64,000 nt of DNA from a virus. The notes under the pieces were generated by a model. It did no database searches and was not told where the DNA came from. It saw nothing but the letters and a program-made list of their open reading frames with translations. The stretch lies in UHGV virus genome UHGV-0390448; one strand, given 5' to 3'. A program made the position numbers and the translations under genes. Below, piece after piece: positions 18,940 through 63,753 of this stretch (its first letter is position 1; the number at the start of each line of letters is the position of its first letter).

Positions 18940-19024
18940 ATAGCATTAGAAAAATAATTTTCGTTAACAATCTTGTGTTAGTATGGTTTAATCTTAATTT
19001 TCTAACATAAAACATTAGAACAAT
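18940..19024. promoter_or_regulatory. Cluster of three operator-like sites (TGTTAGAAAA family) in a divergent promoter region
   Basis: cattagaaaaat at 18943-18954, attttctaacat at 18997-19008 (inverted), cattagaaca at 19013-19022; immediately upstream of the ORF at 19023. Confidence 0.6.
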
Positions 19025-27752: not shown

Positions 27753-27795
27753 TTTCGTAAAACTGTGTTAGAAAATAAAACTCAATTATCTAACA
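27753..27795. promoter_or_regulatory. Operator palindrome upstream of the rdgC-like/dmt operon
   Basis: Perfect 13-bp inverted repeat aaactgtgttaga ... tctaacacagttt separated by 17 bp, each arm carrying the TGTTAGA core. Confidence 0.6.
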
Positions 27796-38783: not shown

Positions 38784-38800
38784 AAATGTTAGAAAACTAA
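38784..38800. promoter_or_regulatory. Operator-like site at the head of the immI-like operon
   Basis: aaatgttagaaaactaa matches the TGTTAGAAAAYTAA family. Confidence 0.55.
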
Positions 38801-39414
38801 TTTATTAATTCAGTCACCATCTGATACAACGTCATTTCATCAGCATTGTGCCGCCTGAAATCTGCTTTGCCGCCTATTTTTCCATCAGCATGAACAGGGA
38901 CCAACCAGGGGTATTGCTCGCGTATCTCTGCTGGCGCTGCGTGTTGATGGTGCCATTTACACAAAGGGAGAACGTATTTATGCGCGTTCTCTGCCGTTCT
39001 CCCGAAGATGTGGTGCAGGGATACCACAGGGCTATGCTGTCCGTGCATATGGCAGGCAATGCAGGGGAGGGCACCGATGGCAGTTTGTATCCGGCGCTCA
39101 TCTGCTGTGAGTGTTCTGCCTTTCAGGCCGCGTGACGCGCGAGTTTTTTTGACAGGAGCAGAAGCGGCCTTCTCTTTTCTTCGCTGTTCATATTGCTTCG
39201 CTTTTTCAATTTTCTTTTGCCGATATTCAGGCGATGCGGCTTTTTCTCGCGCACGCTGCTGCTGGCGTTGAGCTTGCTGAAGACGTTTTGCCCTTTGTTC
39301 CTCCCGCCATTTCGGATCAGCCAGTTTTTGCAGGGCTTTTTGTGTCTGTTTCTCCCAATAGCTTTGCTTCATAGAAATACCCGGTTTGTCTACATCGCCG
39401 CTATGGTTGATCAA
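38797..39414 (-). CDS. ref: Ref-like HNH endonuclease
   Basis: 205 aa; K/R/Q-rich disordered N-terminal half, C-terminal Cys/His cluster (CIACHMHG ... SLHHIFG ... PLCKWHH); perfect palindromic operator directly upstream. Confidence 0.5.
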   Translation of the reverse strand: MINHSGDVDKPGISMKQSYWEKQTQKALQKLADPKWREEQRAKRLQQAQRQQQRAREKAASPEYRQKKIEKAKQYEQRRKEKAASAPVKKTRASRGLKGRTLTADERRIQTAIGALPCIACHMHGQHSPVVSLHHIFGRTAENAHKYVLPLCKWHHQHAAPAEIREQYPWLVPVHADGKIGGKADFRRHNADEMTLYQMVTELIN

Positions 39415-39415
39415 A

Positions 39416-39449
39416 TGTGTTAGAAAATCAAAATTGATTTTCTAACACA
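39416..39449. promoter_or_regulatory. Perfect 34-bp palindromic double operator
   Basis: tgtgttagaaaatcaa-aa-ttgattttctaacaca, 2 nt upstream of the ref-like start and about 170 nt upstream of the divergent plus-strand genes. Confidence 0.7.
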
Positions 39450-39617: not shown

Positions 39618-40256
39618 TTGCGTAACGTTCCTGGGGAAACTTTGATGGCTATACGCATTATGAAAATTTACATCGCGGGTCCGATGACTGGTTATCCCGA
39701 CTACAACCGCACAGCGTTTTTTTCGAAAGCAAAAGAGCTGATGGAGGCAGGGCATATTGTTCTGAATCCGGCGCTGTTACCTGCTGGCCTCTGCCAGAGC
39801 GAATATATGGATATTTGCCTTGCTATGGTGCGTTCGGCTAATGCGGTCTATTTGCTCAAGGGGTGGGAGGAATCAGTTGGCGCTCGTGCAGAGCACGAGC
39901 TGGCTCAAAAGCTGGGGCTGAATGTAATTTATGAGTCACCAACCAACATTGAATGCCAGGTTGCTCCGCATATTTACCGGGAACTGGTCAATGCACTGCG
40001 TGATATCGCTGCTGTATATCACGGCACAGAACAGCTTCGTGAGCGTTTAGCCCATACCATTTCCTATTACCTGTCTGCATCTCATGAGCACAAGCTCCGT
40101 CAGAAGGTAATGATCAAATTTATCATGAGGTTATCGAAATCCCTGGCAAACGCCGATCCAAAGAATCCATTACCGAAAGAGGCAATGAATTACCTGAAGT
40201 CCTGCAACATTGTTTCTGAAGATGGCGTTCTTTTGGTTAGAAGGAGTTCTGCGTGA
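39618..40256 (+). CDS. DUF4406-like (nucleoside 2-deoxyribosyltransferase fold) protein with C-terminal extension
   Basis: Contains MKIYIAGPMTGYPDYNRTAFF...VLNPA, the signature I associate with DUF4406; start may be at an internal Met near 39660. Confidence 0.45.
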   Translation: MRNVPGETLMAIRIMKIYIAGPMTGYPDYNRTAFFSKAKELMEAGHIVLNPALLPAGLCQSEYMDICLAMVRSANAVYLLKGWEESVGARAEHELAQKLGLNVIYESPTNIECQVAPHIYRELVNALRDIAAVYHGTEQLRERLAHTISYYLSASHEHKLRQKVMIKFIMRLSKSLANADPKNPLPKEAMNYLKSCNIVSEDGVLLVRRSSA

Positions 40257-44255: not shown

Positions 44256-44288
44256 GATGTTAGAATATTGATTTTAATTTTCTAACAG
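44256..44288. promoter_or_regulatory. Inverted pair of operator-like sites
   Basis: gatgttagaatattgattttaattttctaacag upstream of the ORF at 44330. Confidence 0.55.
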
Positions 44289-52830: not shown

Positions 52831-53220
52831 ATGGGCTTCCCTTCTCCTGCGGCGGATTATGCAGAGAGCCGTATTTCTCTTGATCAGCAACTAATCAGAC
52901 ATCCTTCAGCAACCTACTTCATGCGGGCGGCAGACAGCCATCACCGTGAGGGAATATTGCAGGGTGCTTTGCTGGTGGTTGATTCCTCACTTACTCCGGT
53001 TGATGGTTCACTGCTTATATGCGCTATGGAGGGGGAATATCGCGTAAAAAGATACCGGAAGTATCCGCGCCAGCACCTGGAGGATTTAAGAACCGGGAAG
53101 AAAGAGGCGTTACCAGTAGATGACGATGGATACACGGGCAGTAATGCTGTTTTTGGTGTGATCACTCATGTCATCAATGATGCCCGAAGTGGGGAATTTG
53201 ATGATTGTCCGGTGATTTAA
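52831..53220 (+). CDS. humD: UmuD-like S24 peptidase (HumD-type)
   Basis: 129 aa UmuD-prime-like domain; position directly upstream of phd-doc as in P1. Confidence 0.65.
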   Translation: MGFPSPAADYAESRISLDQQLIRHPSATYFMRAADSHHREGILQGALLVVDSSLTPVDGSLLICAMEGEYRVKRYRKYPRQHLEDLRTGKKEALPVDDDGYTGSNAVFGVITHVINDARSGEFDDCPVI

Positions 53221-53292
53221 GCTGCAAAGTGCTGGTGCTTTATGCCTGTGAAGTTTATAGTTGTGTACACATAACGAGTACACGAGGTGTTT

Positions 53293-53514
53293 ATGCAATC
53301 CATTAACTTCCGTACCGCGCGCGGCAACCTTTCTGAAGTGCTCAACAATGTTGAAGCCGGGGAAGAGGTTGAAATCACCCGCAGAGGCCGTGAGCCAGCA
53401 GTAATTGTCAACAAGGCTACTTTTGAAGCCTACAAAAAAGCGGCGCTGGATGCCGAATTTGCATCCCTGTTTGACACTCTGGACTCCACCAACAAGGAAC
53501 TGGTTAACCGATAA
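53293..53514 (+). CDS. phd: Phd antitoxin
   Basis: [39 protein letters not shown]... is essentially the P1 Phd sequence as I recall it. Confidence 0.9.
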
Positions 53515-53894
53515 TGAGGCATATATCACCGGAAGAACTTATTGCGCTTCATGATGCGAATATAAACCGCTACGGCGGCCTGCCGGGAATGTCAGATCCG
53601 GGTAGGGCAGAGGCCATTATCGGGAGAGTTCAGGCCAGAGTTGCCTACGAAGAGATCACCGACCTTTTCGAAGTCTCCGCCACCTACCTGGTGGCTACTG
53701 CGAGAGGGCATATATTCAATGATGCCAATAAGCGTACCGCGCTAAACAGTGCGCTGCTATTTCTACGCCGTAACGGTATACAGGTATATGATTCTCCCGT
53801 GCTGGTGGAACTTGCGGTTGGGGCTGCAACTGGTGAAATCCCCGTATCTTCAGTAGCGGAGAAACTACGTGAACTATATGGTTCCAATATTTGA
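53514..53894 (+). CDS. doc: Doc toxin (Fic-fold kinase)
   Basis: [87 protein letters not shown] matches P1 Doc. Confidence 0.9.
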
Positions 53895-53929
53895 AAAGAA
53901 GCCCGCTCAACCAGGCGGGCTTCCTACTA

Positions 53930-55036
53930 TCACTCAATGATTTTTTCTGCTGTCAGCCAGCTAATTTCTTGCCTGTCTTTCGGCGGTTTTAGCATGTGGG
54001 CGTATTCAGCGACATTCTCCCACGGAATTGTTTTTGCCCACTCAACGATAGCATTGTGATCTGCAGTGAAGAGTGGAATGGTGTGCGATTTCAACCACTC
54101 TAATGTTGTAACGCCATGTTTTTTTGCGTGGTGCTGTGCATGATGCCGGGCTATCACTTGTAATGGCATTGTCCATTCACTACCATCAGGCATCGAAAAG
54201 CGCATTGTTTTCGGCATATCTGATTCAAGAACAGCCTCCCGAATACCCGGGAACTCACCAAGAACCATGCGACGGTAATCATCGCCGATTTTACCACCAT
54301 ACATTTCTGCAATCCCATCAAGATAATCTTGAGTAAGCAGAGGTGATTCTTCTGCGTTCAGCTTGATGGCTGTATAAATACCACATGGATTTTCTTCAGT
54401 TTTTGCACGACCATGATGGGAATCGTAAAAGTGTCCATGTTCCTCCTCTGGAGGAGCGGACATTAAAAGTATACGTGAATCGTCACTCACTAAAGATGCT
54501 CTTAACATCCCGAATAGCCGATAGCTTACAAGAGCCGCGTCCATAACAATGATCAAAAGATGTTCAGCATAATATCCGGCTACATCTTCCTCATAATTTA
54601 GGCGATATGGTTTAATTTCGCAGCCCCAAGATTTTTGGTAACGATGATTGAGGCCATTTTGGTCGATTTGAAAATACTCTCCCAGTAATGGCGCTTTTGT
54701 ATTAGCTTTCTCCCAATACATATTCATGAGTGAGAGAGTTACCATTCCATTACGCTCAAAGTCTGGAGCGACCATGACCGTTTTAGACTCAGGCATCAGG
54801 ATCGTATAAAGGATACAAATGATAGCCAGAGCAGACTTATGTCCTATCCCAGTCGGTGTGGTAACGCTGACTGCTGAACCTTTTTGTTGAATCGCTTCAA
54901 CAATTAATTTTTGCTGGTGGGTTAACTTAACCCCCATCAACTCTTCTGCTGCTAATGCCCAGTCATGGCTATATTTGCTTACCAGCTCTCTCCACTCTGG
55001 TAATTCGGTGATGTTTTTAGGCGTCAGCATCAGCAT
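53930..55036 (-). CDS. Terminase-large-subunit ATPase-domain paralog with degenerate Walker motifs and no nuclease domain
   Basis: 368 aa, collinear with the first ~240 aa of the PacB-like terminase (shared AEHLL.I, MLSQPTRPSGYFYESHH vs LLMSAPPEEEHGHFYDSHH, NPEGVWTAIVLNSEESP vs NPCGIYTAIKLNAEESP), but Walker A reads PTGIGHKS and Walker B IIVMDAA (no DE); C-terminal 130 aa unrelated. Confidence 0.6.
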   Translation of the reverse strand: MLMLTPKNITELPEWRELVSKYSHDWALAAEELMGVKLTHQQKLIVEAIQQKGSAVSVTTPTGIGHKSALAIICILYTILMPESKTVMVAPDFERNGMVTLSLMNMYWEKANTKAPLLGEYFQIDQNGLNHRYQKSWGCEIKPYRLNYEEDVAGYYAEHLLIIVMDAALVSYRLFGMLRASLVSDDSRILLMSAPPEEEHGHFYDSHHGRAKTEENPCGIYTAIKLNAEESPLLTQDYLDGIAEMYGGKIGDDYRRMVLGEFPGIREAVLESDMPKTMRFSMPDGSEWTMPLQVIARHHAQHHAKKHGVTTLEWLKSHTIPLFTADHNAIVEWAKTIPWENVAEYAHMLKPPKDRQEISWLTAEKIIE

Positions 55037-55823
55037 CCTCCGCTACCTCTGCCTCCACATCTGCCGCGACTTCATCGGACTGTTCTTCTTTGGCCTGTTC
55101 TGCAATCGCCGCACGGCATTTCGCCCTGGCTGTAGCGATAGCCTCAACTTTCACGTCATTAGGAATACTTGAGGTGACATACATATCCAGTTCTTCAGCA
55201 CGGAATACTGTTTTGCCCAGGAATTCATCAAGCATCCAGGTTAAGGAAAAGTCGCAGGAAATCAGGTCTACTTCGCCTTCCGCGCCGTTTGGGAAATGGA
55301 TAAATATCTGTTTGCCCAGGCCAAGCACGCGACAAGCAGCCATCATTACTGCAAGTTCCAGGTCTTTGTTTTCACCTGCTACTGGTTGATCCACACCAGT
55401 AATAGTGCCGTTCAAATGGATATTATATGGCTGATATTTAGAGATACGTTCTACACGCCATGTGCCGGTTAAGGTTCCCTGGCGGAAGATTATCGGCGTG
55501 ACCGAAAGCGACAGCTCTCGAATGAGTTGTTGCGCTATGGCTGGGTCATACAGGGGATCTAACGCGATGCATCCATAAGACTGCGCCAGTTCAAACAATT
55601 CTTCCTGTGTGCACTGAATGCCTCTTGCCGTAATAAAACGTCTGACTCCCGTTTTTCCGTCACGCCAGATAGCAATGCCATTCTCACTATCTAACTCTTC
55701 GTCTAAGCCCAGGTATGTAAGGATGGTTCGCTCAATGGTGGCAAAGGGCAGGGACATATCATCGTTTACATCCACCAGCAGGCCGTTACGCAGGCGATAT
55801 TGAATGTTTTTGGTATTTTCCAC
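55017..55823 (-). CDS. Hypothetical protein with strongly acidic C-terminal tail
   Basis: 268 aa ending EEQSDEVAADVEAEVAEDADADA; overlaps the start of the terminase-paralog gene. Confidence 0.45.
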   Translation of the reverse strand: MENTKNIQYRLRNGLLVDVNDDMSLPFATIERTILTYLGLDEELDSENGIAIWRDGKTGVRRFITARGIQCTQEELFELAQSYGCIALDPLYDPAIAQQLIRELSLSVTPIIFRQGTLTGTWRVERISKYQPYNIHLNGTITGVDQPVAGENKDLELAVMMAACRVLGLGKQIFIHFPNGAEGEVDLISCDFSLTWMLDEFLGKTVFRAEELDMYVTSSIPNDVKVEAIATARAKCRAAIAEQAKEEQSDEVAADVEAEVAEDADADA

Positions 55824-55829
55824 GTTAAA

Positions 55830-56492
55830 TCACTCCACAACAAACCAGTCACAGGCCAGCAGGTCGCCAACTGAAGGCACCCACGGAACAACTACACCTT
55901 GTGCATTTTTTAAGGCGAAATAAGCACCATACGGAACGAGGTCGCCGGGGAAATATCCCTTAATGGCTTCCATTCGTGCCGGGTACTGTCCTTCAGGAAC
56001 CAGCCAGCAGAATTGGTTTTCGCCGTTCCACCCGCGTCGAGCAACTTTCTTGCCATCCTTCAGCCACATCAGCGCGTCAGAAAAGTCGGCTGCTTCAAGG
56101 TCGATTTCTTCTTGTAGAGTAGCGATACCGCCAGCAGAAATAGTTACGTCCCTGGCTGTAATGAATGTCACCCCATTGTGACCTTCAATGCTGAGCAATG
56201 TCCCATTTTCGAAGGCGTCGTTAACCCGGCTATAGCATTTTTCAAATGCTTTCTCTGGCACATAGACCAGATAGCCATTTTCAGCAGTGACGAGATATCC
56301 TCCTATTTGCGGGCGGAATTTTTCCAAGAACACACCATCAACACGAAGCGTCATTCCTTTTGGCTCAACGACTTCGATACTGCCAAAAATGGGCGCATAA
56401 TCTTCGCCGACAATAACAATATCTTTGATTTTCGATGCCCGAATGATGCTGTGGCATTTGTATTTGGGGAACACCTGAAAAGTGCTGACCAT
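55830..56492 (-). CDS. Two-domain protein with C-terminal DUF2829 (Tad2-like) domain
   Basis: C-terminal ~85 aa (FSDALMWLKDGKKVARRGWNGENQF...VPYGAYFALKNAQGVVVPWVPSVGDLLACDWFVVE) matches the DUF2829 signature; N-terminal ~130 aa unassigned. Confidence 0.55.
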   Translation of the reverse strand: MVSTFQVFPKYKCHSIIRASKIKDIVIVGEDYAPIFGSIEVVEPKGMTLRVDGVFLEKFRPQIGGYLVTAENGYLVYVPEKAFEKCYSRVNDAFENGTLLSIEGHNGVTFITARDVTISAGGIATLQEEIDLEAADFSDALMWLKDGKKVARRGWNGENQFCWLVPEGQYPARMEAIKGYFPGDLVPYGAYFALKNAQGVVVPWVPSVGDLLACDWFVVE

Positions 56493-56506
56493 AATCCTTC
56501 CTCTAC

Positions 56507-57001
56507 TTAAAACTTTTCGTACTGAAGCGGTGTACGCTTGATTTCAACGCGGCCTTCCGATGTGCTACCAAAACCACCAGCACCTCGCTCTGTTTCATCG
56601 AGTTCATCAACTTCTACCAGCGATACCGGTTCAACACGCTCAAAAATGCCTTGCATGACCGCCATTCCAGGCTTGAGGCAAACACCTTCACCACCGGGAT
56701 CTGTAATCAGTTTTGCCATGATTTCACCGCGATAATCGGCGTCGATAATTCCTACGCAGTTAGCCAGGCGCGTATGCTTTTTGCAGCCCAATCCGGAACG
56801 AGGATAAAGTTTCAGACACCAACCAGGAGGGATCGCCATAGCGAGGCCGGTATGCACCCACCAGCTTGAGGAAATAGCGCCATTGCTATCGATACCAGGC
56901 GTTATTTCAACAGCAACAAAATCCATCGCCGCCGATCCGGCGGTGGCGTAAACGGGGAGTTTTGCCGCCGGATGAAGGCGTTTCACTTTCACGTTAATCA
57001 T
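56507..57001 (-). CDS. dut: dUTP diphosphatase (dUTPase)
   Basis: 164 aa; LPVYATAGSAAMDF, RSGLG, IDADYRGE and C-terminal GFGSTS motifs collinear with E. coli Dut. Confidence 0.8.
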   Translation of the reverse strand: MINVKVKRLHPAAKLPVYATAGSAAMDFVAVEITPGIDSNGAISSSWWVHTGLAMAIPPGWCLKLYPRSGLGCKKHTRLANCVGIIDADYRGEIMAKLITDPGGEGVCLKPGMAVMQGIFERVEPVSLVEVDELDETERGAGGFGSTSEGRVEIKRTPLQYEKF

Positions 57002-57486
57002 TGCTTTTTAGCTCTCCGGGTAAATGTATAAATCCGGCGTTTGATATGCGGAGCGGTCGGAACGGAGACGCAGGTATTCTCGATAACACCTTGCTCCTCC
57101 AGCGATCGCACAGCACGCAAGAACTGTGATGCATCGCCACCGCCAGATAGCCAGAATTTGCGGGCATAGACGCTGCCATTACGGATAATTTCTGCGATCA
57201 CCCGCGCTTGCGTCTGGCTTTCTCGATAGCCAAAGAGTTCTCTTGCCTCTCCTTGTGGGATAGCCAACTGATAGCCTTTCCCGCTACGGTGACGGACAAA
57301 ACCGTGAGCAATGAGGTTCTTCAGCTCATTTCGGGTGCGGATACACCCGTACTCAGGGAACTGTGTGTTGATATCACCAGGCTTATGCCATTCATCAGGG
57401 CTATCAGCCAGGAGGGACAGAAGTTTCCCTGACAGCTCAGGATTAGTGGTTGGATAGCAGTTCAGGGATGGGTAGTAAGTTTTCAT
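56998..57486 (-). CDS. Hypothetical protein
   Basis: 162-aa ORF, ATGA-overlapped on both sides within the operon downstream of the recombinase. Confidence 0.4.
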   Translation of the reverse strand: MKTYYPSLNCYPTTNPELSGKLLSLLADSPDEWHKPGDINTQFPEYGCIRTRNELKNLIAHGFVRHRSGKGYQLAIPQGEARELFGYRESQTQARVIAEIIRNGSVYARKFWLSGGGDASQFLRAVRSLEEQGVIENTCVSVPTAPHIKRRIYTFTRRAKKQ

Positions 57487-57827
57487 TTGCGCCCCCTTGC
57501 CGGATAGCGCCCGGCATTTGCATCAGGGGCAATGAAGCCGCTGGTGGGGCGAGTGAAAACATGGTTAATTTTCTCGGTCATAGCGCGATAATTTTCCTGA
57601 TAGTGGGCCAGGAGTTTTTCAGCAGCAATGACGGTTACTTTCCGGACGTAGCGTTCAGCTTCCTCCAGATTTCGCCAGTTTTTTTCGAGGGTAAACACGG
57701 GAACGGCATCAAGTCCGGTCATAACACCGAACACCACGACCGCCTGGTCGCGCTTAACGCCCGCAGTGAAGGTTATGGTGTAACCGTCAACAGTGAAGCG
57801 TTTTGATTCCGTAATACGATTGTGCAA
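57483..57827 (-). CDS. Hypothetical protein, first gene of the operator-controlled operon
   Basis: 114-aa ORF; tandem operator-like sites 57870-57900 lie about 60 nt upstream. Confidence 0.4.
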   Translation of the reverse strand: MHNRITESKRFTVDGYTITFTAGVKRDQAVVVFGVMTGLDAVPVFTLEKNWRNLEEAERYVRKVTVIAAEKLLAHYQENYRAMTEKINHVFTRPTSGFIAPDANAGRYPARGRK

Positions 57828-57869
57828 AGTACCCTCCGCAATAGGCGAGGGTACTTTACATTAAAATGC

Positions 57870-57900
57870 ACTGTCTAAAAAGATTGTTAGAAAATTAATT
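57870..57900. promoter_or_regulatory. Tandem operator-like sites between the recombinase gene and the downstream operon
   Basis: actgtctaaaaag + attgttagaaaattaatt; the second is a full match to the TGTTAGAAAAYTAA family. Confidence 0.55.
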
Positions 57901-58928
57901 CAGGAATCCATCAGGCGACTATTTGCACCAACGGATGCCCCGCTACGGCGCAAATATCGCATAAGTGTTTCGGGCTTTTTCCATGTGCCTTCCTGCATGA
58001 TCTCGACCATTGACACCTGTTTCTCAGCCATATCAATTGCCGCACCAACACGCGCACTATGACCTGTCCACGTCCGGTATCTTCCTTTGTTCGGCGTGGC
58101 ATCTCGCTTATTCAGCAATCCCCAGGCATCGCTGAATATTTTCTCCATCGCAGGAGCAGTAAGAGGCGTTGTCGTGATTCTGGCTTTATTACTGCGGTGT
58201 ATTGGCGGGAATAGCACCGCGTCCGGATGTTCACGAAGTCCGGACACCTCCAGCCAGTCGTTTAGCACGGCGGTAGTGCAACGAGAAAGCACCTTATCAA
58301 GTCCGGCGGCGGTCGTGATGGTCTTCGTGTGTGAAATATGCAGCGTTACAGTGTCACCTGTTTGGTCCAGATCTCCGACACGGATGCGCGAGATTTCTGA
58401 CATACGCATCAGGGTATTGTATGCCACGAAGAGAAACGCCCGATTGCGCAGGTCCACCAGCCGCTCGGAACGGGACAGCAATACGTCGAGCAATTTCAGA
58501 TCATCCCACCGCAACGGTATAGCCTGGCCTGTACGCTCGCCTTTTTCCGTTGCCGCTTCGCGCCGGATGCGCCGCATGGCCAGAGATACACTTTTATCGT
58601 CTGACAGCGGCGGTAGGCCGCATTGCGAAAGCAGCATGTTAAGCATGGCATAGTGCTTATCAATGGTGGTCGAAGCCAGATCGGCTTCATGCAACTGGAG
58701 AAGATACTCGCGGGCCATTTCCGGCGTAATCGGGAACCAGGGGCGCTGGCGCGAATTACACCACCGCGCCCAGGAATGAAAGACCAGACGGAGATCACGA
58801 AGTGTATTTGGGGCATAAGCTCCCTGGTCGTTCATGAACTGCATAAAGTTTTTTGCAGCTTCCTGGTATTCGGTGCCAATATCGCGCAGAAAACCGCCAG
58901 AACCGCCGGAGATAACTAGTTCACCCAT
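57900..58928 (-). CDS. Cre-family tyrosine recombinase (Dre-like)
   Basis: 342 aa, collinear with P1 Cre (WFP..PE..R.YLL.L, VSL.MRRIR, IRNLAF..AYNTL.R..EI.RIRV.D, W.GHSARVGAA.DMA, EIMQ.G.W, .Y.R.); about 45-50 percent identity by eye; catalytic R/H/R/W/Y positions conserved. Confidence 0.9.
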   Translation of the reverse strand: MGELVISGGSGGFLRDIGTEYQEAAKNFMQFMNDQGAYAPNTLRDLRLVFHSWARWCNSRQRPWFPITPEMAREYLLQLHEADLASTTIDKHYAMLNMLLSQCGLPPLSDDKSVSLAMRRIRREAATEKGERTGQAIPLRWDDLKLLDVLLSRSERLVDLRNRAFLFVAYNTLMRMSEISRIRVGDLDQTGDTVTLHISHTKTITTAAGLDKVLSRCTTAVLNDWLEVSGLREHPDAVLFPPIHRSNKARITTTPLTAPAMEKIFSDAWGLLNKRDATPNKGRYRTWTGHSARVGAAIDMAEKQVSMVEIMQEGTWKKPETLMRYLRRSGASVGANSRLMDS

Positions 58929-59079
58929 GAAACTATTAAACCTCTATATACAGATGACGCTACGTGAAAAATAGAAAACTGACAGGGTAGTTATAAGTTA
59001 ATTTTCAAAATTCAAGCCTTTGATTCGAGGCATGATTTTTCATCCTTGTCAATACTACCTGTTTACTGGAGATTATAGC

Positions 59080-59113
59080 CTAACTTTAAATAATGCCAAT
59101 TATTTAAAGTTAG
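59080..59113. other. lox-type recombination site (rox-like): 13-bp inverted arms around an 8-bp spacer
   Basis: cTAACTTTAAATA-ATGCCAAT-TATTTAAAGTTAg; arms are perfect inverted repeats and share TAACTT...ATA with loxP arms; the 32-bp core equals the rox sequence as I recall it; 150 bp upstream of the recombinase gene. Confidence 0.85.
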
Positions 59114-59194: not shown

Positions 59195-59297
59195 ACATTT
59201 TCTAATAGGAACAATCAAAAAAAAGCGGTTTTATCCTTTACTCACCTTGTTATTCAGCATAAATTTGTCACAGGACTTTTATGTTAGAAAACTAAAT
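59195..59297. promoter_or_regulatory. Two operator-like sites upstream of the 59310 ORF
   Basis: acattttctaatagg (59195-59209, inverted) and ttatgttagaaaactaaat (59279-59297). Confidence 0.55.
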
Positions 59298-59309
59298 CGA
59301 GTAGGAATA

Positions 59310-60347
59310 ATGAGTAAGAAGTCGATCGAGAATGAGTACAAACGGTTCCTGCAAACCGCTGAACGGTGGAAAGAGCTGGTGGTCGCAAACTCTGTTTTCC
59401 ATGATACCAGTTACGTTGGCGAGGAATTTCGCCATGTTGCATTAACACATGATCCGGCTGTATTAGAAGAAGCTGAAAAATGCATAGCCGAATGGAAAGC
59501 CTTTGTTGATCTGTGTCGCAAGGATGATGACAAAGCCTCAAACATTGTTGAGTCGGTTTATTTACCGATCCCATTCATTGTTGAGGATACTAATCAGAGT
59601 ACGCATATCGTTATGCAAAGCGCAACCACAACGAGAACATTTACGCGCGAAGACCTGCTGAAAAAATACGATAAAACTATAAAGAAAAGCATGAAAAACA
59701 GGATCTTTTCACAGGTTGTCGGTGCGCTTGAAGAAGAACGCAGATTCTTCGCCGCAGAACGTGAGGGCGAGGTATACCGCGCAAGAAAAGAAGGTTATAC
59801 CGATGTGGTGATTACCACCAATATCGAGGGCAACAATGGACTTTCACGCTTCAGAGTGGGTACGCACGGTGCGCTGATCTTTGCAAAAAAAGCAAACACA
59901 GAGATTCCCGTTGTTAACAACGTTGGTGAGCGCCGCACCCTTACCATTTACACTGGCATTAAACCGCTTCCGTGCGGACTTCTCGGCGAATTTGACCTTT
60001 ATCGGGTTCGTGACCTGGAAAAGCAGCAGCCAAGCTATGTCGTGAAGTCATATATCCTGAGAAACATTGATATCCGCAATCAGAGTTTAAAAAACAAATC
60101 AGAGAAAATGCTGTCCGAAGCCGATCCAGCCATACACCAGATCGTTAGCCGGAAAATTCAAGAAGCTAAAGATGCAATGGCAAGGCTGGATAAAATGGAC
60201 CTGGAACTACTGGAAGTTATGATTGCCTCCGGCGATGACCTGACAGGCATCCGCCTTACTGAAGCCAGGAAAAAATACGGTAAAAGCGTTGAAGAACGCT
60301 ATGGGTACACATTCACACAAACGATGTACGCGGCAAAACTCTGGTAA
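59310..60347 (+). CDS. Hypothetical protein in the position of the immunity repressor (between lox-like site and pacB)
   Basis: 345 aa from ATG 59310 (RBS AGTAGGA); operator-like sites in its 5-prime region. I could not recognise similarity to P1 C1, so the repressor assignment is positional only. Confidence 0.4.
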   Translation: MSKKSIENEYKRFLQTAERWKELVVANSVFHDTSYVGEEFRHVALTHDPAVLEEAEKCIAEWKAFVDLCRKDDDKASNIVESVYLPIPFIVEDTNQSTHIVMQSATTTRTFTREDLLKKYDKTIKKSMKNRIFSQVVGALEEERRFFAAEREGEVYRARKEGYTDVVITTNIEGNNGLSRFRVGTHGALIFAKKANTEIPVVNNVGERRTLTIYTGIKPLPCGLLGEFDLYRVRDLEKQQPSYVVKSYILRNIDIRNQSLKNKSEKMLSEADPAIHQIVSRKIQEAKDAMARLDKMDLELLEVMIASGDDLTGIRLTEARKKYGKSVEERYGYTFTQTMYAAKLW

Positions 60348-60364: not shown

Positions 60365-60386
60365 GCCCCGAATCGCCGGGGCTTTT
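60365..60386 (+). terminator. Terminator between the convergent 59310 ORF and pacB
   Basis: gccccg-aatcgc-cggggc followed by tttt. Confidence 0.6.
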
Positions 60387-61893
60387 AAATGTCAATATCA
60401 GGAATATCCACTTCTGCCAACACCTGATCGCGGAATGTTGCTAGTTCTGCGCCAATGTCTTCATTAGCAGGCACGTAATCCACCAGCATAGTGAAGCAGT
60501 AGGTATCCCATCTGTCCGGCGACTTGATGTTTAACTTCTGCCGCATGTGCTCCTTGCGCATCATCGCCACCTTCCCTTCTTCGTTAAGCATATACGGGAT
60601 TTTTGATGCCTGATCGGCAGTTTTGGGGTCACTATCGATACGCATACGCCCTGATTTAATGGCATCCCCTGCCATAATATTGGCGTAAGCACGCTGATTG
60701 ACAAAGCGTTCTCTGTCTCTTAGCGCAAACATAGGTTTACCCCAACGGATGCGAACGGGATTAGCACCACGGCGGACAAGCTGCGCACACGTATCTGAAC
60801 CAAAGCCATCAGCATCCACAGCAATGGTGATGTTCGGGTATTTATCAGGAGTGCATTCGTTATAGATAAAGTCGGCAAAAGCCAACGGGTCCATAGTGCC
60901 TGGCATCTCCAGTATCTTAAAGTTCACAACACGTCGTTTCTCACGATAACCGGATACTTTGCATATATTGAGCACCGATTTGTCGCGACCATTACCGACG
61001 TCAGCGGTCGCTACCCAGCCCCAATCTTTCTCCAGCAACACTTTACGCCGTGCGGCGCGGTCGCACTCATCACGACCAAGCAAATACCCGTTAATTGCAC
61101 GCGGGAACTGGCCCAGCACCTTAACCATGTACTCCAGCGAATCCCTGCCGCCGTACTCCAGCAATTTCTCACGAATAAAGCTCGGTTCAACGAATGGAGA
61201 TTCTTCAGAGTTAAGGACTATTGCCGTCCAGACTCCTTCCGGATTGCCTTCTGCCTTTGCCCTTGAATGGTGGGATTCATAAAAGTAACCGCTTGGACGC
61301 GTAGGCTGGGAAAGCATGAGCATACGGTTATCTTTCTGCGTTAACGCCCCCGTCATGACGTTAATCGCCTTATCTGATATGCCCGATGCTTCATCAAGGA
61401 TTAGCAGTAAATGCTCCGCGTGCTCCCCCGCCAGTGCCTCTTCGTTACCGAGTCGATAACCTTTACAGAGCACTTCCCATATCCCTTTACGGGAACGCTC
61501 ATAAAACATGGTGTCAGACAGGACAAAATAGGTCTGTAACCAGCCGTGGCGCTTAACAGCATTCGCCCAAAACTGTTTCACGTATTTGAATACGCCTGTT
61601 TTTACCTGGCCTATTTTGTTCGCAACAATAATGACGCGGGCGTCGGGGAACAGGATCATAAAAATTAGTAGCAACATCGCGGTAAGGGACGACTTACCCG
61701 TTCCGTGTCCGGACGTAACGGTCGTCCTGCTCCCCGTCTCCTGCACTGACTGAATGATCTGCTGCTGCTGGTGGGAGGGGAACATCCCAAAAATATCGAC
61801 AACCGCCTGGGTAAAGTTGTATCGATACCTGATAACCATATCGCGCCAACGTGGATCACTGGTGACGCACTTAATCTTACGACCACCAGCCAT
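60385..61893 (-). CDS. pacB: Terminase large subunit (PacB-like)
   Basis: 502 aa; N-terminal ATPase with Walker A-like SGHGTGKSS and Walker B LLLILDEA, C-terminal RNaseH-like nuclease region with conserved acidic residues; start overlaps the upstream stop (TAATG). Confidence 0.8.
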   Translation of the reverse strand: MAGGRKIKCVTSDPRWRDMVIRYRYNFTQAVVDIFGMFPSHQQQQIIQSVQETGSRTTVTSGHGTGKSSLTAMLLLIFMILFPDARVIIVANKIGQVKTGVFKYVKQFWANAVKRHGWLQTYFVLSDTMFYERSRKGIWEVLCKGYRLGNEEALAGEHAEHLLLILDEASGISDKAINVMTGALTQKDNRMLMLSQPTRPSGYFYESHHSRAKAEGNPEGVWTAIVLNSEESPFVEPSFIREKLLEYGGRDSLEYMVKVLGQFPRAINGYLLGRDECDRAARRKVLLEKDWGWVATADVGNGRDKSVLNICKVSGYREKRRVVNFKILEMPGTMDPLAFADFIYNECTPDKYPNITIAVDADGFGSDTCAQLVRRGANPVRIRWGKPMFALRDRERFVNQRAYANIMAGDAIKSGRMRIDSDPKTADQASKIPYMLNEEGKVAMMRKEHMRQKLNIKSPDRWDTYCFTMLVDYVPANEDIGAELATFRDQVLAEVDIPDIDI

Positions 61894-63721: not shown

Positions 63722-63740
63722 TGTATTAGAAAATTAATAT
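63722..63740. promoter_or_regulatory. Operator-like site upstream of the 63254-63646 / pacA / pacB operon
   Basis: tgtattagaaaattaatat. Confidence 0.5.
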
Positions 63741-63753
63741 TAACTTACTAACA

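Follow-up and report, generated by a model that had tools for sequence, protein, structure and literature searches.

Does the block of six genes that follows the recombinase gene of a phage-plasmid make up a dedicated counter-defence module, or is it a set of lineage-typical accessory genes among which a single one targets host immunity? The question is raised by a 64,000-nucleotide (nt) stretch of the virus genome UHGV-0390448 (hereafter the window, meaning the whole stretch analysed), in which an earlier note had singled out a minus-strand array running from position 57827 down to 53930 as an undescribed anti-defence module. Our analysis favours the second answer: the block probably consists of accessory genes that are typical of the position after the recombinase gene dre in D6-like phage-plasmids, that have mixed functions and that include one predicted Tad2 sponge. 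A new counter-defence module is not established, and present evidence does not make the block a system of a new kind.

A six-gene block downstream of dre

Genomically, the window represents a D6-like phage-plasmid and not a P1-type one, because its recombinase is Dre, its inverted repeat is rox, and its closest matches are D6 and related plasmids. In sequence searches, the 6-kb region around the block was ~84% identical to phage D6 and 84–99% identical to non-mobilisable Escherichia, Salmonella and Shigella plasmids of roughly 90 kb, with the E. marmotae plasmid pRHBSTW-00605_3 as the top match (98% identity, full length). The window Dre shares 94% amino-acid identity with D6 Dre, with a ratio of nonsynonymous to synonymous substitution rates (dN/dS) of 0.04, and the rox half-site is the same as the half-site annotated in D6.

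All six co-oriented open reading frames (ORFs) of the array are found behind the recombinase as described in the earlier note. From upstream to downstream, they encode two basic proteins of 114 and 162 amino acids (aa), a dUTPase (dut), a 220-aa fusion of a Dec-like OB domain with a Tad2 (DUF2829) domain, a 268-aa homolog of the P1 protein IsaA, and a 368-aa paralog of the terminase protein PacB (Table 1). These are genuine genes under purifying selection, since their dN/dS values against orthologs from D6 or plasmid pTB423 were low (0.07–0.45 across all six) and annotations of phage D6 and many plasmids contain the same array. Individually, the values were 0.17–0.20 for the 114-aa gene, 0.07 for the 162-aa gene, 0.10–0.14 for dut, 0.25–0.45 for the Tad2 fusion, 0.11 for isaA and 0.33 for the PacB paralog. 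A Shine-Dalgarno (SD) sequence precedes each of the six genes, with TTG starting the 114-aa gene and GTG the 268-aa gene, and successive genes are separated by −4, −4, +14, +6 and −20 nt. The last junction becomes −14 nt if the sixth gene starts at its second ATG (55030), which is the likelier start given its better SD fit and its agreement with RefSeq. This packing suggests that the genes form an operon, as do the single regulatory region ahead of them and the single terminator at their end (a GC-rich hairpin directly 3′ of the last stop codon). Synonymous divergence (dS) between adjacent genes of the block ranges from 0.25 to 2.4, which marks the block as a mosaic formed by recombination. 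A 118-aa ORF on the plus strand (57450–57806), antisense to the 114-aa gene, is almost certainly spurious, given the dN/dS of about 0.2 of the sense gene and its annotation in D6. No Rfam family matched between 53500 and 59400 at E-values up to 1.

Comparatively, the first five genes are core to the D6 lineage and the sixth is accessory. Within that lineage this is not the picture of a variable hotspot, contrary to the suggestion that the block occupies a known variable locus. In D6, the array reads dre-orf117-orf116-dut-DUF2829 (146 aa, without the OB domain)-isaA homolog, followed by the converging pdcA-doc-phd; the PacB paralog is missing there, as it is from CP085065 and CP095127, and is present in pTB423 and pRHBSTW-00605_3. 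Across D6-like plasmids, the order dre-114-162-dut-Tad2-isaA is conserved, with variation confined to the sixth gene and the N-terminal domain of the Tad2 protein; about 44 plasmids have a PacB paralog of the D6 type (identity of 60% or more), versus 130 that carry the 162-aa gene. Evolutionarily, the block is a two-part mosaic of a D6-specific trio and a cassette of Tad2 fusion, IsaA and PacB paralog shared with P1-like phages, because the latter three recur at the P1-like ssb-hxr locus. This locus reads ssb-Tad2 fusion-isaA-hxr in SJ46 and Ro157c2YLVW, ssb-isaA-PacB paralog-hxr in MH422554 and 813R1, and ssb-isaA-IS1-isaB-hxr in P1, where the C1 operator Ossb lies upstream of ssb. It has been termed “variable region 2”; P1-like elements have eight such regions, and isaA lies in one of them.

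The Tad2 fusion and its neighbours

Functionally, the 220-aa fusion is the only gene of the block that we could identify as a counter-defence gene, its product being a predicted sponge. We assign its C-terminal domain to Tad2 because sequence, profile and fold agree and the pocket motifs are kept. The Pfam family PF11195 (DUF2829) covers residues 136–219 with 80.3 bits (cut-off 25; E = 1.6e-22), in line with the earlier DUF2829 call; phmmer searches retrieved MoTad2 (9eib; 5.6e-20), HgmTad2/AcrIIA7 (3.6e-10) and SPO1 Tad2 (6e-9), and a profile search against the PDB retrieved MoTad2 (4e-25) and SPO1 Tad2 (3e-17). The structural model has the N-terminal helix and antiparallel sheet of the Tad2 fold, and places a confident OB domain at residues 5–92 (predicted local distance difference test, pLDDT, about 90) before a low-confidence linker at residues 93–130. 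For the binding pocket, we took as reference the W21/N22/G23 loop of HgmTad2 and its residues W87, S90, T92 and D93; HgmTad2 loses binding of glyco-cyclic ADP-ribose (gcADPR) when W21/N22 and S90/T92/D93 are mutated. The fusion has GWNG (154–157), W204, S207 and D210, all invariant or nearly so among homologs apart from N156 and G157. Among characterized relatives, MoTad2 sequesters His-ADPR (histidine-ADP-ribose), the type II Thoeris signal, as well as the Pycsar signals cUMP and cCMP (cyclic uridine and cytidine monophosphate), and TmoTad2, from an enterobacterial (Tatumella) prophage, likewise inhibits type II Thoeris. By analogy with MoTad2, the nearest relative with a solved structure, the fusion may assemble as tetramers that sequester TIR-derived signals of the ADP-ribose type, His-ADPR of type II Thoeris being the likeliest, with a second pocket possibly taking up cyclic pyrimidine or dinucleotide signals, and would in this way blunt signalling immunity.

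The N-terminal module (residues 1–125) is homologous to the Dec protein of phage L (profile E = 1.2e-8), in sequence and in fold, over the OB domain and the trimer-spike segment of Dec; the spike-equivalent segment is of low confidence in the monomer model. A role of the fusion as a capsid decoration protein was considered and is disfavoured, as the gene lies in an accessory block and its homologs lie outside head modules, since Klebsiella phage LASTA, E. coli phage Bas106 and Salmonella phage PCSE1 carry stand-alone homologs of the N-domain in their early or regulatory regions. Alleles of the fusion in close plasmids differ mainly in the insertion loop between β2 and β3 (at least four loop types, alignment A1), one loop type turning the pocket motif GWNG into EWKG, which suggests diversification of ligand specificity. 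In some D6-like plasmids, a deletion joins dut in frame to the Tad2 domain; the resulting 241-aa E. coli protein (P0053, on a contig of 88.6 kb), which corresponds to window positions 55830–57001, fuses Dut motif V (RGAGG/FGST) to the linker of the Tad2 fusion (SAGG/I), with the loss of the OB domain and of some of motif V. A Tad2-like gene also adjoins a dUTPase gene in Bacillus phage Shanette (KC595513.2, 93206–93475), and the OB-domain homolog of phage PCSE1 lies one gene away from a MazG-like pyrophosphatase gene; sponge-related domains may thus recur near nucleotide-sanitising enzymes.

The dUTPase itself is predicted to be an ordinary, housekeeping-type and catalytically intact enzyme that would keep uracil out of replicating phage DNA. 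It matched the NCBIfam models NF001862 (116.6 bits, cut-off 103) and TIGR00576 (116, cut-off 102.55), the former note's dUTPase call thus standing on an equivalog above cut-off as well as on the Pfam match (Table 1), and it matched PDB dUTPases with E-values down to 2e-23. All five motifs are intact in alignment to 7n56 (AGSAAMD, PRSGLG, GIIDADYRGEI, GMAVMQ and RGAGGFGST). The two basic proteins are more restricted in distribution. Homologs of the 114-aa protein fall into 8 clusters only, and it returned no match in Pfam, PDB or PADLOC searches. An exhaustive HMMER search of 1.84 billion representatives found five relatives of the 162-aa protein, which makes it a lineage orphan; Pfam gave nothing for it even at E = 10, and its gene occurs in 130 PLSDB plasmids, next to dut in every record among those listed. 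It is possibly a winged-helix DNA binder, a reading that the sub-threshold MarR matches of a 29%-identical distant relative (P0143) fit without proving.

The acidic-tailed protein of the earlier note is the 268-aa IsaA homolog, which does carry an acidic tail and is 46.6% identical to P1 IsaA over 262 residues (E = 3e-85; phrog_2326 at 2e-124). The family is found in P1/D6-type elements only (12 clusters, 474 plasmids), and its acidic tail varies and is at times missing (alignment A2). By eye, no nuclease-type catalytic motif was picked out in that alignment, the profile gave zero matches in the PDB, and a fold search of a viral structure library returned only P1's own protein, which the P1 genome annotation lists as of “unknown function”. 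Comparison with genes from the neighbourhood of P1 cre (cra, c8, ref, mat, lxc, ulx, pdcA/B, lpa, hxr and lxr) left IsaA as the sole match.

The sixth protein is a paralog of the window PacB (60385–61893), with 34% identity (E = 6e-49; phrog_5902 at 4e-127) over PacB residues 8–264 and with many non-catalytic invariant positions retained. Its Walker A motif has changed from GTGKS to GIGHK(S), with His in the lysine column, and its Walker B motif from ILDEA to VMDAA (DE to DA); the RNase H-like nuclease domain is missing (PacB ~270–500 unmatched), its place being taken by a His-rich region of ~100 aa for which searches found no relatives. Having lost both catalytic Walker residues (the lysine of Walker A and the glutamate of Walker B) as well as the nuclease domain, the paralog is not a terminase, and the earlier description of a catalytically degenerate terminase-ATPase paralog fits it well. 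Orthologs in P1-like phages are 48% identical, carry the still more degenerate motifs GIGETS and VINSA, and are conserved over their full length, which, despite the degenerate motifs, points to a conserved pseudo-enzyme and not a decaying copy. The paralog always adjoins and overlaps isaA. P1 IsaB was considered as an IS1-truncated remnant of the paralog and rejected, as the two have zero similarity.

Regulatory sequences and genomic setting

One exact copy of an operator-like 11-mer, ATTTTCTAACA, precedes the first gene (57885–57895), and the neighbouring TTTTTAGACA is a weak partial copy; of the “tandem operator-like sites” previously proposed, one site therefore stands and the tandem arrangement is doubtful. 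Across the window, the 8-mer core of the motif occurs 10 times (1.7 expected) and the extended 17-mer AAATTAnTTTTCTAACA 4 times (0.18 expected), with further operator-like positions at 18997, 27767–27795, 38787–38803, 39419–39447, 44268–44287, 59197–59207, 59282–59298 and 63734–63753. The lpa-like, ref-like, exonuclease and HNH (pdcB-like) genes are each preceded by inverted pairs with an 8-bp spacer, whereas the repressor gene is preceded by a single copy and another single copy lies at the 3′ end of the ref-like gene. The P1 C1 operator consensus ATTGCTCTAATAAATTT had no match in the window at up to 3 mismatches, and the element probably uses a different operator; its resident repressor (366 aa, 59247–60347) is only faintly related to C1. 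The −22 box of P1 late promoters, AAGTGACTT, occurs 13 times in the window versus 13.9 expected, with no copy in the locus.

In the alignment to D6 of the 72-bp gap between dre and the block, two conserved blocks flank a variable 13-nt stretch, and both hexamers of a candidate weak promoter are kept. The hairpin at the start of the first gene (ΔG −25 kcal/mol, z-score −4.4, 0 of 200 shuffles as stable) buries the SD sequence GGAGGG (57837–57832) and the TTG start codon (57827–57825) of the 114-aa gene; its D6 version differs by a single U-A to U-G change. Expression of the block could follow either of two routes. Transcripts reading through from the strong, rox-overlapping dre promoter would carry the hairpin, in which the ribosome-binding site of the first gene and its start codon are hidden. 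Alternatively, a weak promoter in the gap, beside the single operator, might be de-repressed upon induction or infection, much as in the C1-controlled ssb-isaA and ref operons of P1, and its transcript, with a predicted start at about 57846 within the hairpin, would lack the 5′ arm and leave the SD sequence free. Upstream, rox and the dre promoter overlap (59072–59112), with the −35 element inside the rox spacer; by occupying rox, Dre could thus control its own gene as well as any transcription that reads through into the block.

Downstream, humD, phd and doc (52831–53894) converge on the end of the block, and the terminator overlaps the doc stop codon. Elsewhere in the window, a gene for a Ref-like RecA-filament endonuclease lies on the minus strand at 38797–39414, and ref is thus not placed after the recombinase as in P1; a bivalent operator-like site separates it from a divergent gene (39618–40256) resembling nucleoside 2-deoxyribosyltransferase or MazG.

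Table 1 Features of the six-gene block and its surroundings in the window, from the upstream to the downstream end of the array.
Feature	Position	Strand	Remarks
rox recombination site	59081..59112	.	TAACTTTAAATAAT-GCCA-ATTATTTAAAGTTA; perfect 15-nt inverted repeat
Near-consensus sigma-70 promoter TTGGCA-16-TATAAT	59099..59072	-	Scan 11/12; overlaps rox, aims into dre
Dre-type tyrosine recombinase	57900..58928	-	PF00589/PF02899; D6 annotation; upstream of block, same strand
Operator-like 17-mer GAATTAATTTTCTAACA, single (“monovalent”)	57885..57901	-	Overlaps dre stop codon; kept in D6
Candidate weak promoter TTTTTA-N17-TAAAGT	57853..57881	-	Inferred from window-D6 alignment A3
Strong RNA hairpin or DNA palindrome	57823..57860	-	14-nt arms; kept in D6
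114-aa basic protein, D6 orf117 ortholog	57483..57827	-	Isoelectric point (pI) 9.8; phrog_1968 at 4e-44
162-aa basic protein, D6 orf116 ortholog	56998..57486	-	pI 9.7; phrog_6669
Trimeric-type dUTPase (dut, D6 orf115)	56507..57001	-	PF00692 at 7e-13; 164 aa
220-aa fusion gene	55830..56492	-	D6 orf114 position; Dec-like OB domain and Tad2
Dec-like OB/beta-barrel domain and linker (residues 1–125)	56118..56492	-	N-terminal part of 220-aa fusion
Tad2 (DUF2829) sponge domain (residues 132–220)	55830..56099	-	C-terminal part of 220-aa fusion
268-aa acidic IsaA homolog (D6 orf113)	55017..55823	-	pI 4.4; variable acidic C-terminal tail
PacB N-terminal (terminase ATPase) paralog, 368 aa	53930..55036	-	Likely start 55030; His-rich C-terminus
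Intrinsic terminator closing the array	53893..53922	-	AAGCCCGC-loop-GCGGGCTT then CTTTTC; terminator scan

Rival readings and known systems

Several observations weigh against a block of lineage genes under repressor control that includes a working sponge. From a regulatory perspective, co-transcription and repressor binding are predictions from sequence, the block has a half-site where the window has full palindromes at several other sites, and a consensus scan of the 72-bp gap yielded no sigma-70 promoter; early expression, as claimed in the earlier note, comes down to an analogy with P1. As to the sponge, the adenine-contacting T92 of HgmTad2 corresponds to G209 in the fusion, the extra Dec-like domain could change Tad2 oligomerisation, and the fusion was not found in the supplementary text files of two Tad2 papers. 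Moreover, no function can be assigned to four of the six proteins, which makes “mixed function” partly an argument from ignorance.

We consider it unlikely that the six genes are instead a coherent island whose products all act on host immunity, with the Tad2 fusion sponging signals, the PacB pseudo-ATPase, with IsaA, serving as a decoy or inhibitor for terminase sensors (for example Avs-type STAND NTPases), the dUTPase countering attacks on the nucleotide pool and the two basic proteins inhibiting other systems. Such an island would account for the joint travel of Tad2 fusion, IsaA and PacB paralog at two loci (P1-like and D6-like), one of them among the eight variable regions of P1-like elements, for the top dN/dS values of the Tad2 fusion and the PacB paralog within the block (0.44 and 0.33), for allelic variation lying mostly in ligand-pocket loops, and for a pseudo-ATPase kept at 48% identity between lineages after losing its catalytic residues. 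The in-frame dut-Tad2 fusion and the Bacillus phage neighbourhood would also agree with it; the former, however, resembles a microhomology deletion that removed part of Dut motif V. Against the island stand the standard, housekeeping type of the dUTPase, the fixation of five of the six genes in the D6 lineage, and, Tad2 aside, zero homology to known anti-defence proteins, PADLOC (zero matches for all six block proteins), Pfam, PHROG and PDB searches being empty or uninformative. Of the proposed counter-defence module, the Tad2 fusion therefore stands, and the 114-aa and 162-aa proteins, dUTPase, IsaA and PacB paralog have no link to counter-defence by homology, fold or context. Nor is the array undescribed: according to an independent 2025 preprint, 93% of D6-like elements and 56% of P1-like ones have Tad2, and D6 carries the array as orf113–orf117.

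Narrower readings concern parts of the block. With the N-terminal surface by which PacB meets PacA or DNA, and no capacity for ATP hydrolysis or DNA cutting, the paralog would titrate PacA, so that with IsaA it could form a packaging or competition module that holds back premature cleavage of the element's own pac site or poisons the pacase of another P1/D6-type phage that is co-resident or superinfecting. We regard this as distinctly improbable: the alignment to PacB 8–264 with its retained non-catalytic positions, the constant overlap with isaA and the frequent co-occurrence, according to a preprint on P1/D6 distribution, of P1-family elements of differing pac or immunity type in the same hosts all point towards it, yet the idea is purely inferential, the His-rich C-terminal domain has no known counterpart, and D6 and about two thirds of D6-like plasmids package normally without the paralog. 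It is very improbable that the 220-aa protein is virion-associated, with a Dec-like module that trimerises and binds capsids and a DUF2829 domain that has some other role. The spike-equivalent segment is indeed disordered in the monomer model, as in monomeric Dec, but the gene lies beside dut or ssb and not in a head module, unrelated phages have stand-alone N-domain homologs in their early or regulatory regions, D6 and other elements have the Tad2 domain without the OB domain, and the pocket motifs of Tad2 are conserved. We also posit, as a quite unlikely extension, that Tad2 fusion, IsaA and pseudo-terminase form a mobile cassette for counter-defence or inter-phage competition that moves between the ssb-hxr and post-dre loci; the dead terminase paralog, together with IsaA, would then act as a decoy for, or antagonist of, immune sensors or packaging machines that detect the terminase fold, and the OB module would give the sponge a new assembly or targeting.

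Pathogenic E. coli, Shigella and Salmonella commonly carry phage-plasmids of the D6/P1 type, and if the Tad2 fusion is active, its sponge would aid the establishment and persistence of these elements in hosts with Thoeris, Pycsar or CBASS. The Dec-like OB and Tad2 form, together with the loop-swapped alleles of near-identical plasmids, provides a natural series for the evolution of sponge specificity, and the block presents an intact, IS1-free isaA arrangement relevant to P1. In our view, the Dec-like-Tad2 architecture with its loop alleles, the dut-Tad2 deletion fusion, and the pair of IsaA and pseudo-terminase are the most interesting aspects of the locus.

Among known systems, the closest counterpart is phage D6 (MF356679 / NC_050154), in which orf117-orf116-dut (orf115)-orf114-orf113 has the same position, order and strand as in the window, with about 84% DNA identity and with the operator, the hairpin and the first five genes orthologous; D6 differs in lacking the sixth gene and in the short, OB-free form of its DUF2829 protein. 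The sponges MoTad2 (9eib), SPO1 gp34.65 (8sme) and HgmTad2/AcrIIA7 (8kbi) share the GWNG loop and the W..S..D residues with the window protein, whose Tad2 domain is 50% identical to MoTad2; known Tad2 proteins, however, are single-domain (about 90–105 aa), whereas the window protein adds a 130-residue Dec-like OB module and linker. Phage L Dec differs in gene context, the window gene standing in an accessory block and not among head-morphogenesis genes. PacB of P1 and D6 is homologous to the window paralog over its N-terminal 260 residues (34–37% identity, common phrog_5902 core). The ssb region of P1-like phages holds homologs of IsaA (46.6% identity), the PacB paralog (48%) and the Tad2 fusion (80%); it differs from the window block in location, following ssb and, in P1, being controlled by the C1 operator Ossb, and the IsaB of P1 is unrelated to the PacB paralog. 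Finally, the operator-like sites of the window resemble the C1 operators of P1 (Oref, Omat, Ossb and Olpa) in being 17-bp and asymmetric, in occurring singly or in inverted pairs and in preceding equivalent genes (lpa, ref and the repressor), besides the block itself; the distribution of the window motif mirrors that of Olpa, Oref, Oc1 and Omat, the sequences themselves being different (AAATTAnTTTTCTAACA versus ATTGCTCTAATAAATTT in P1).

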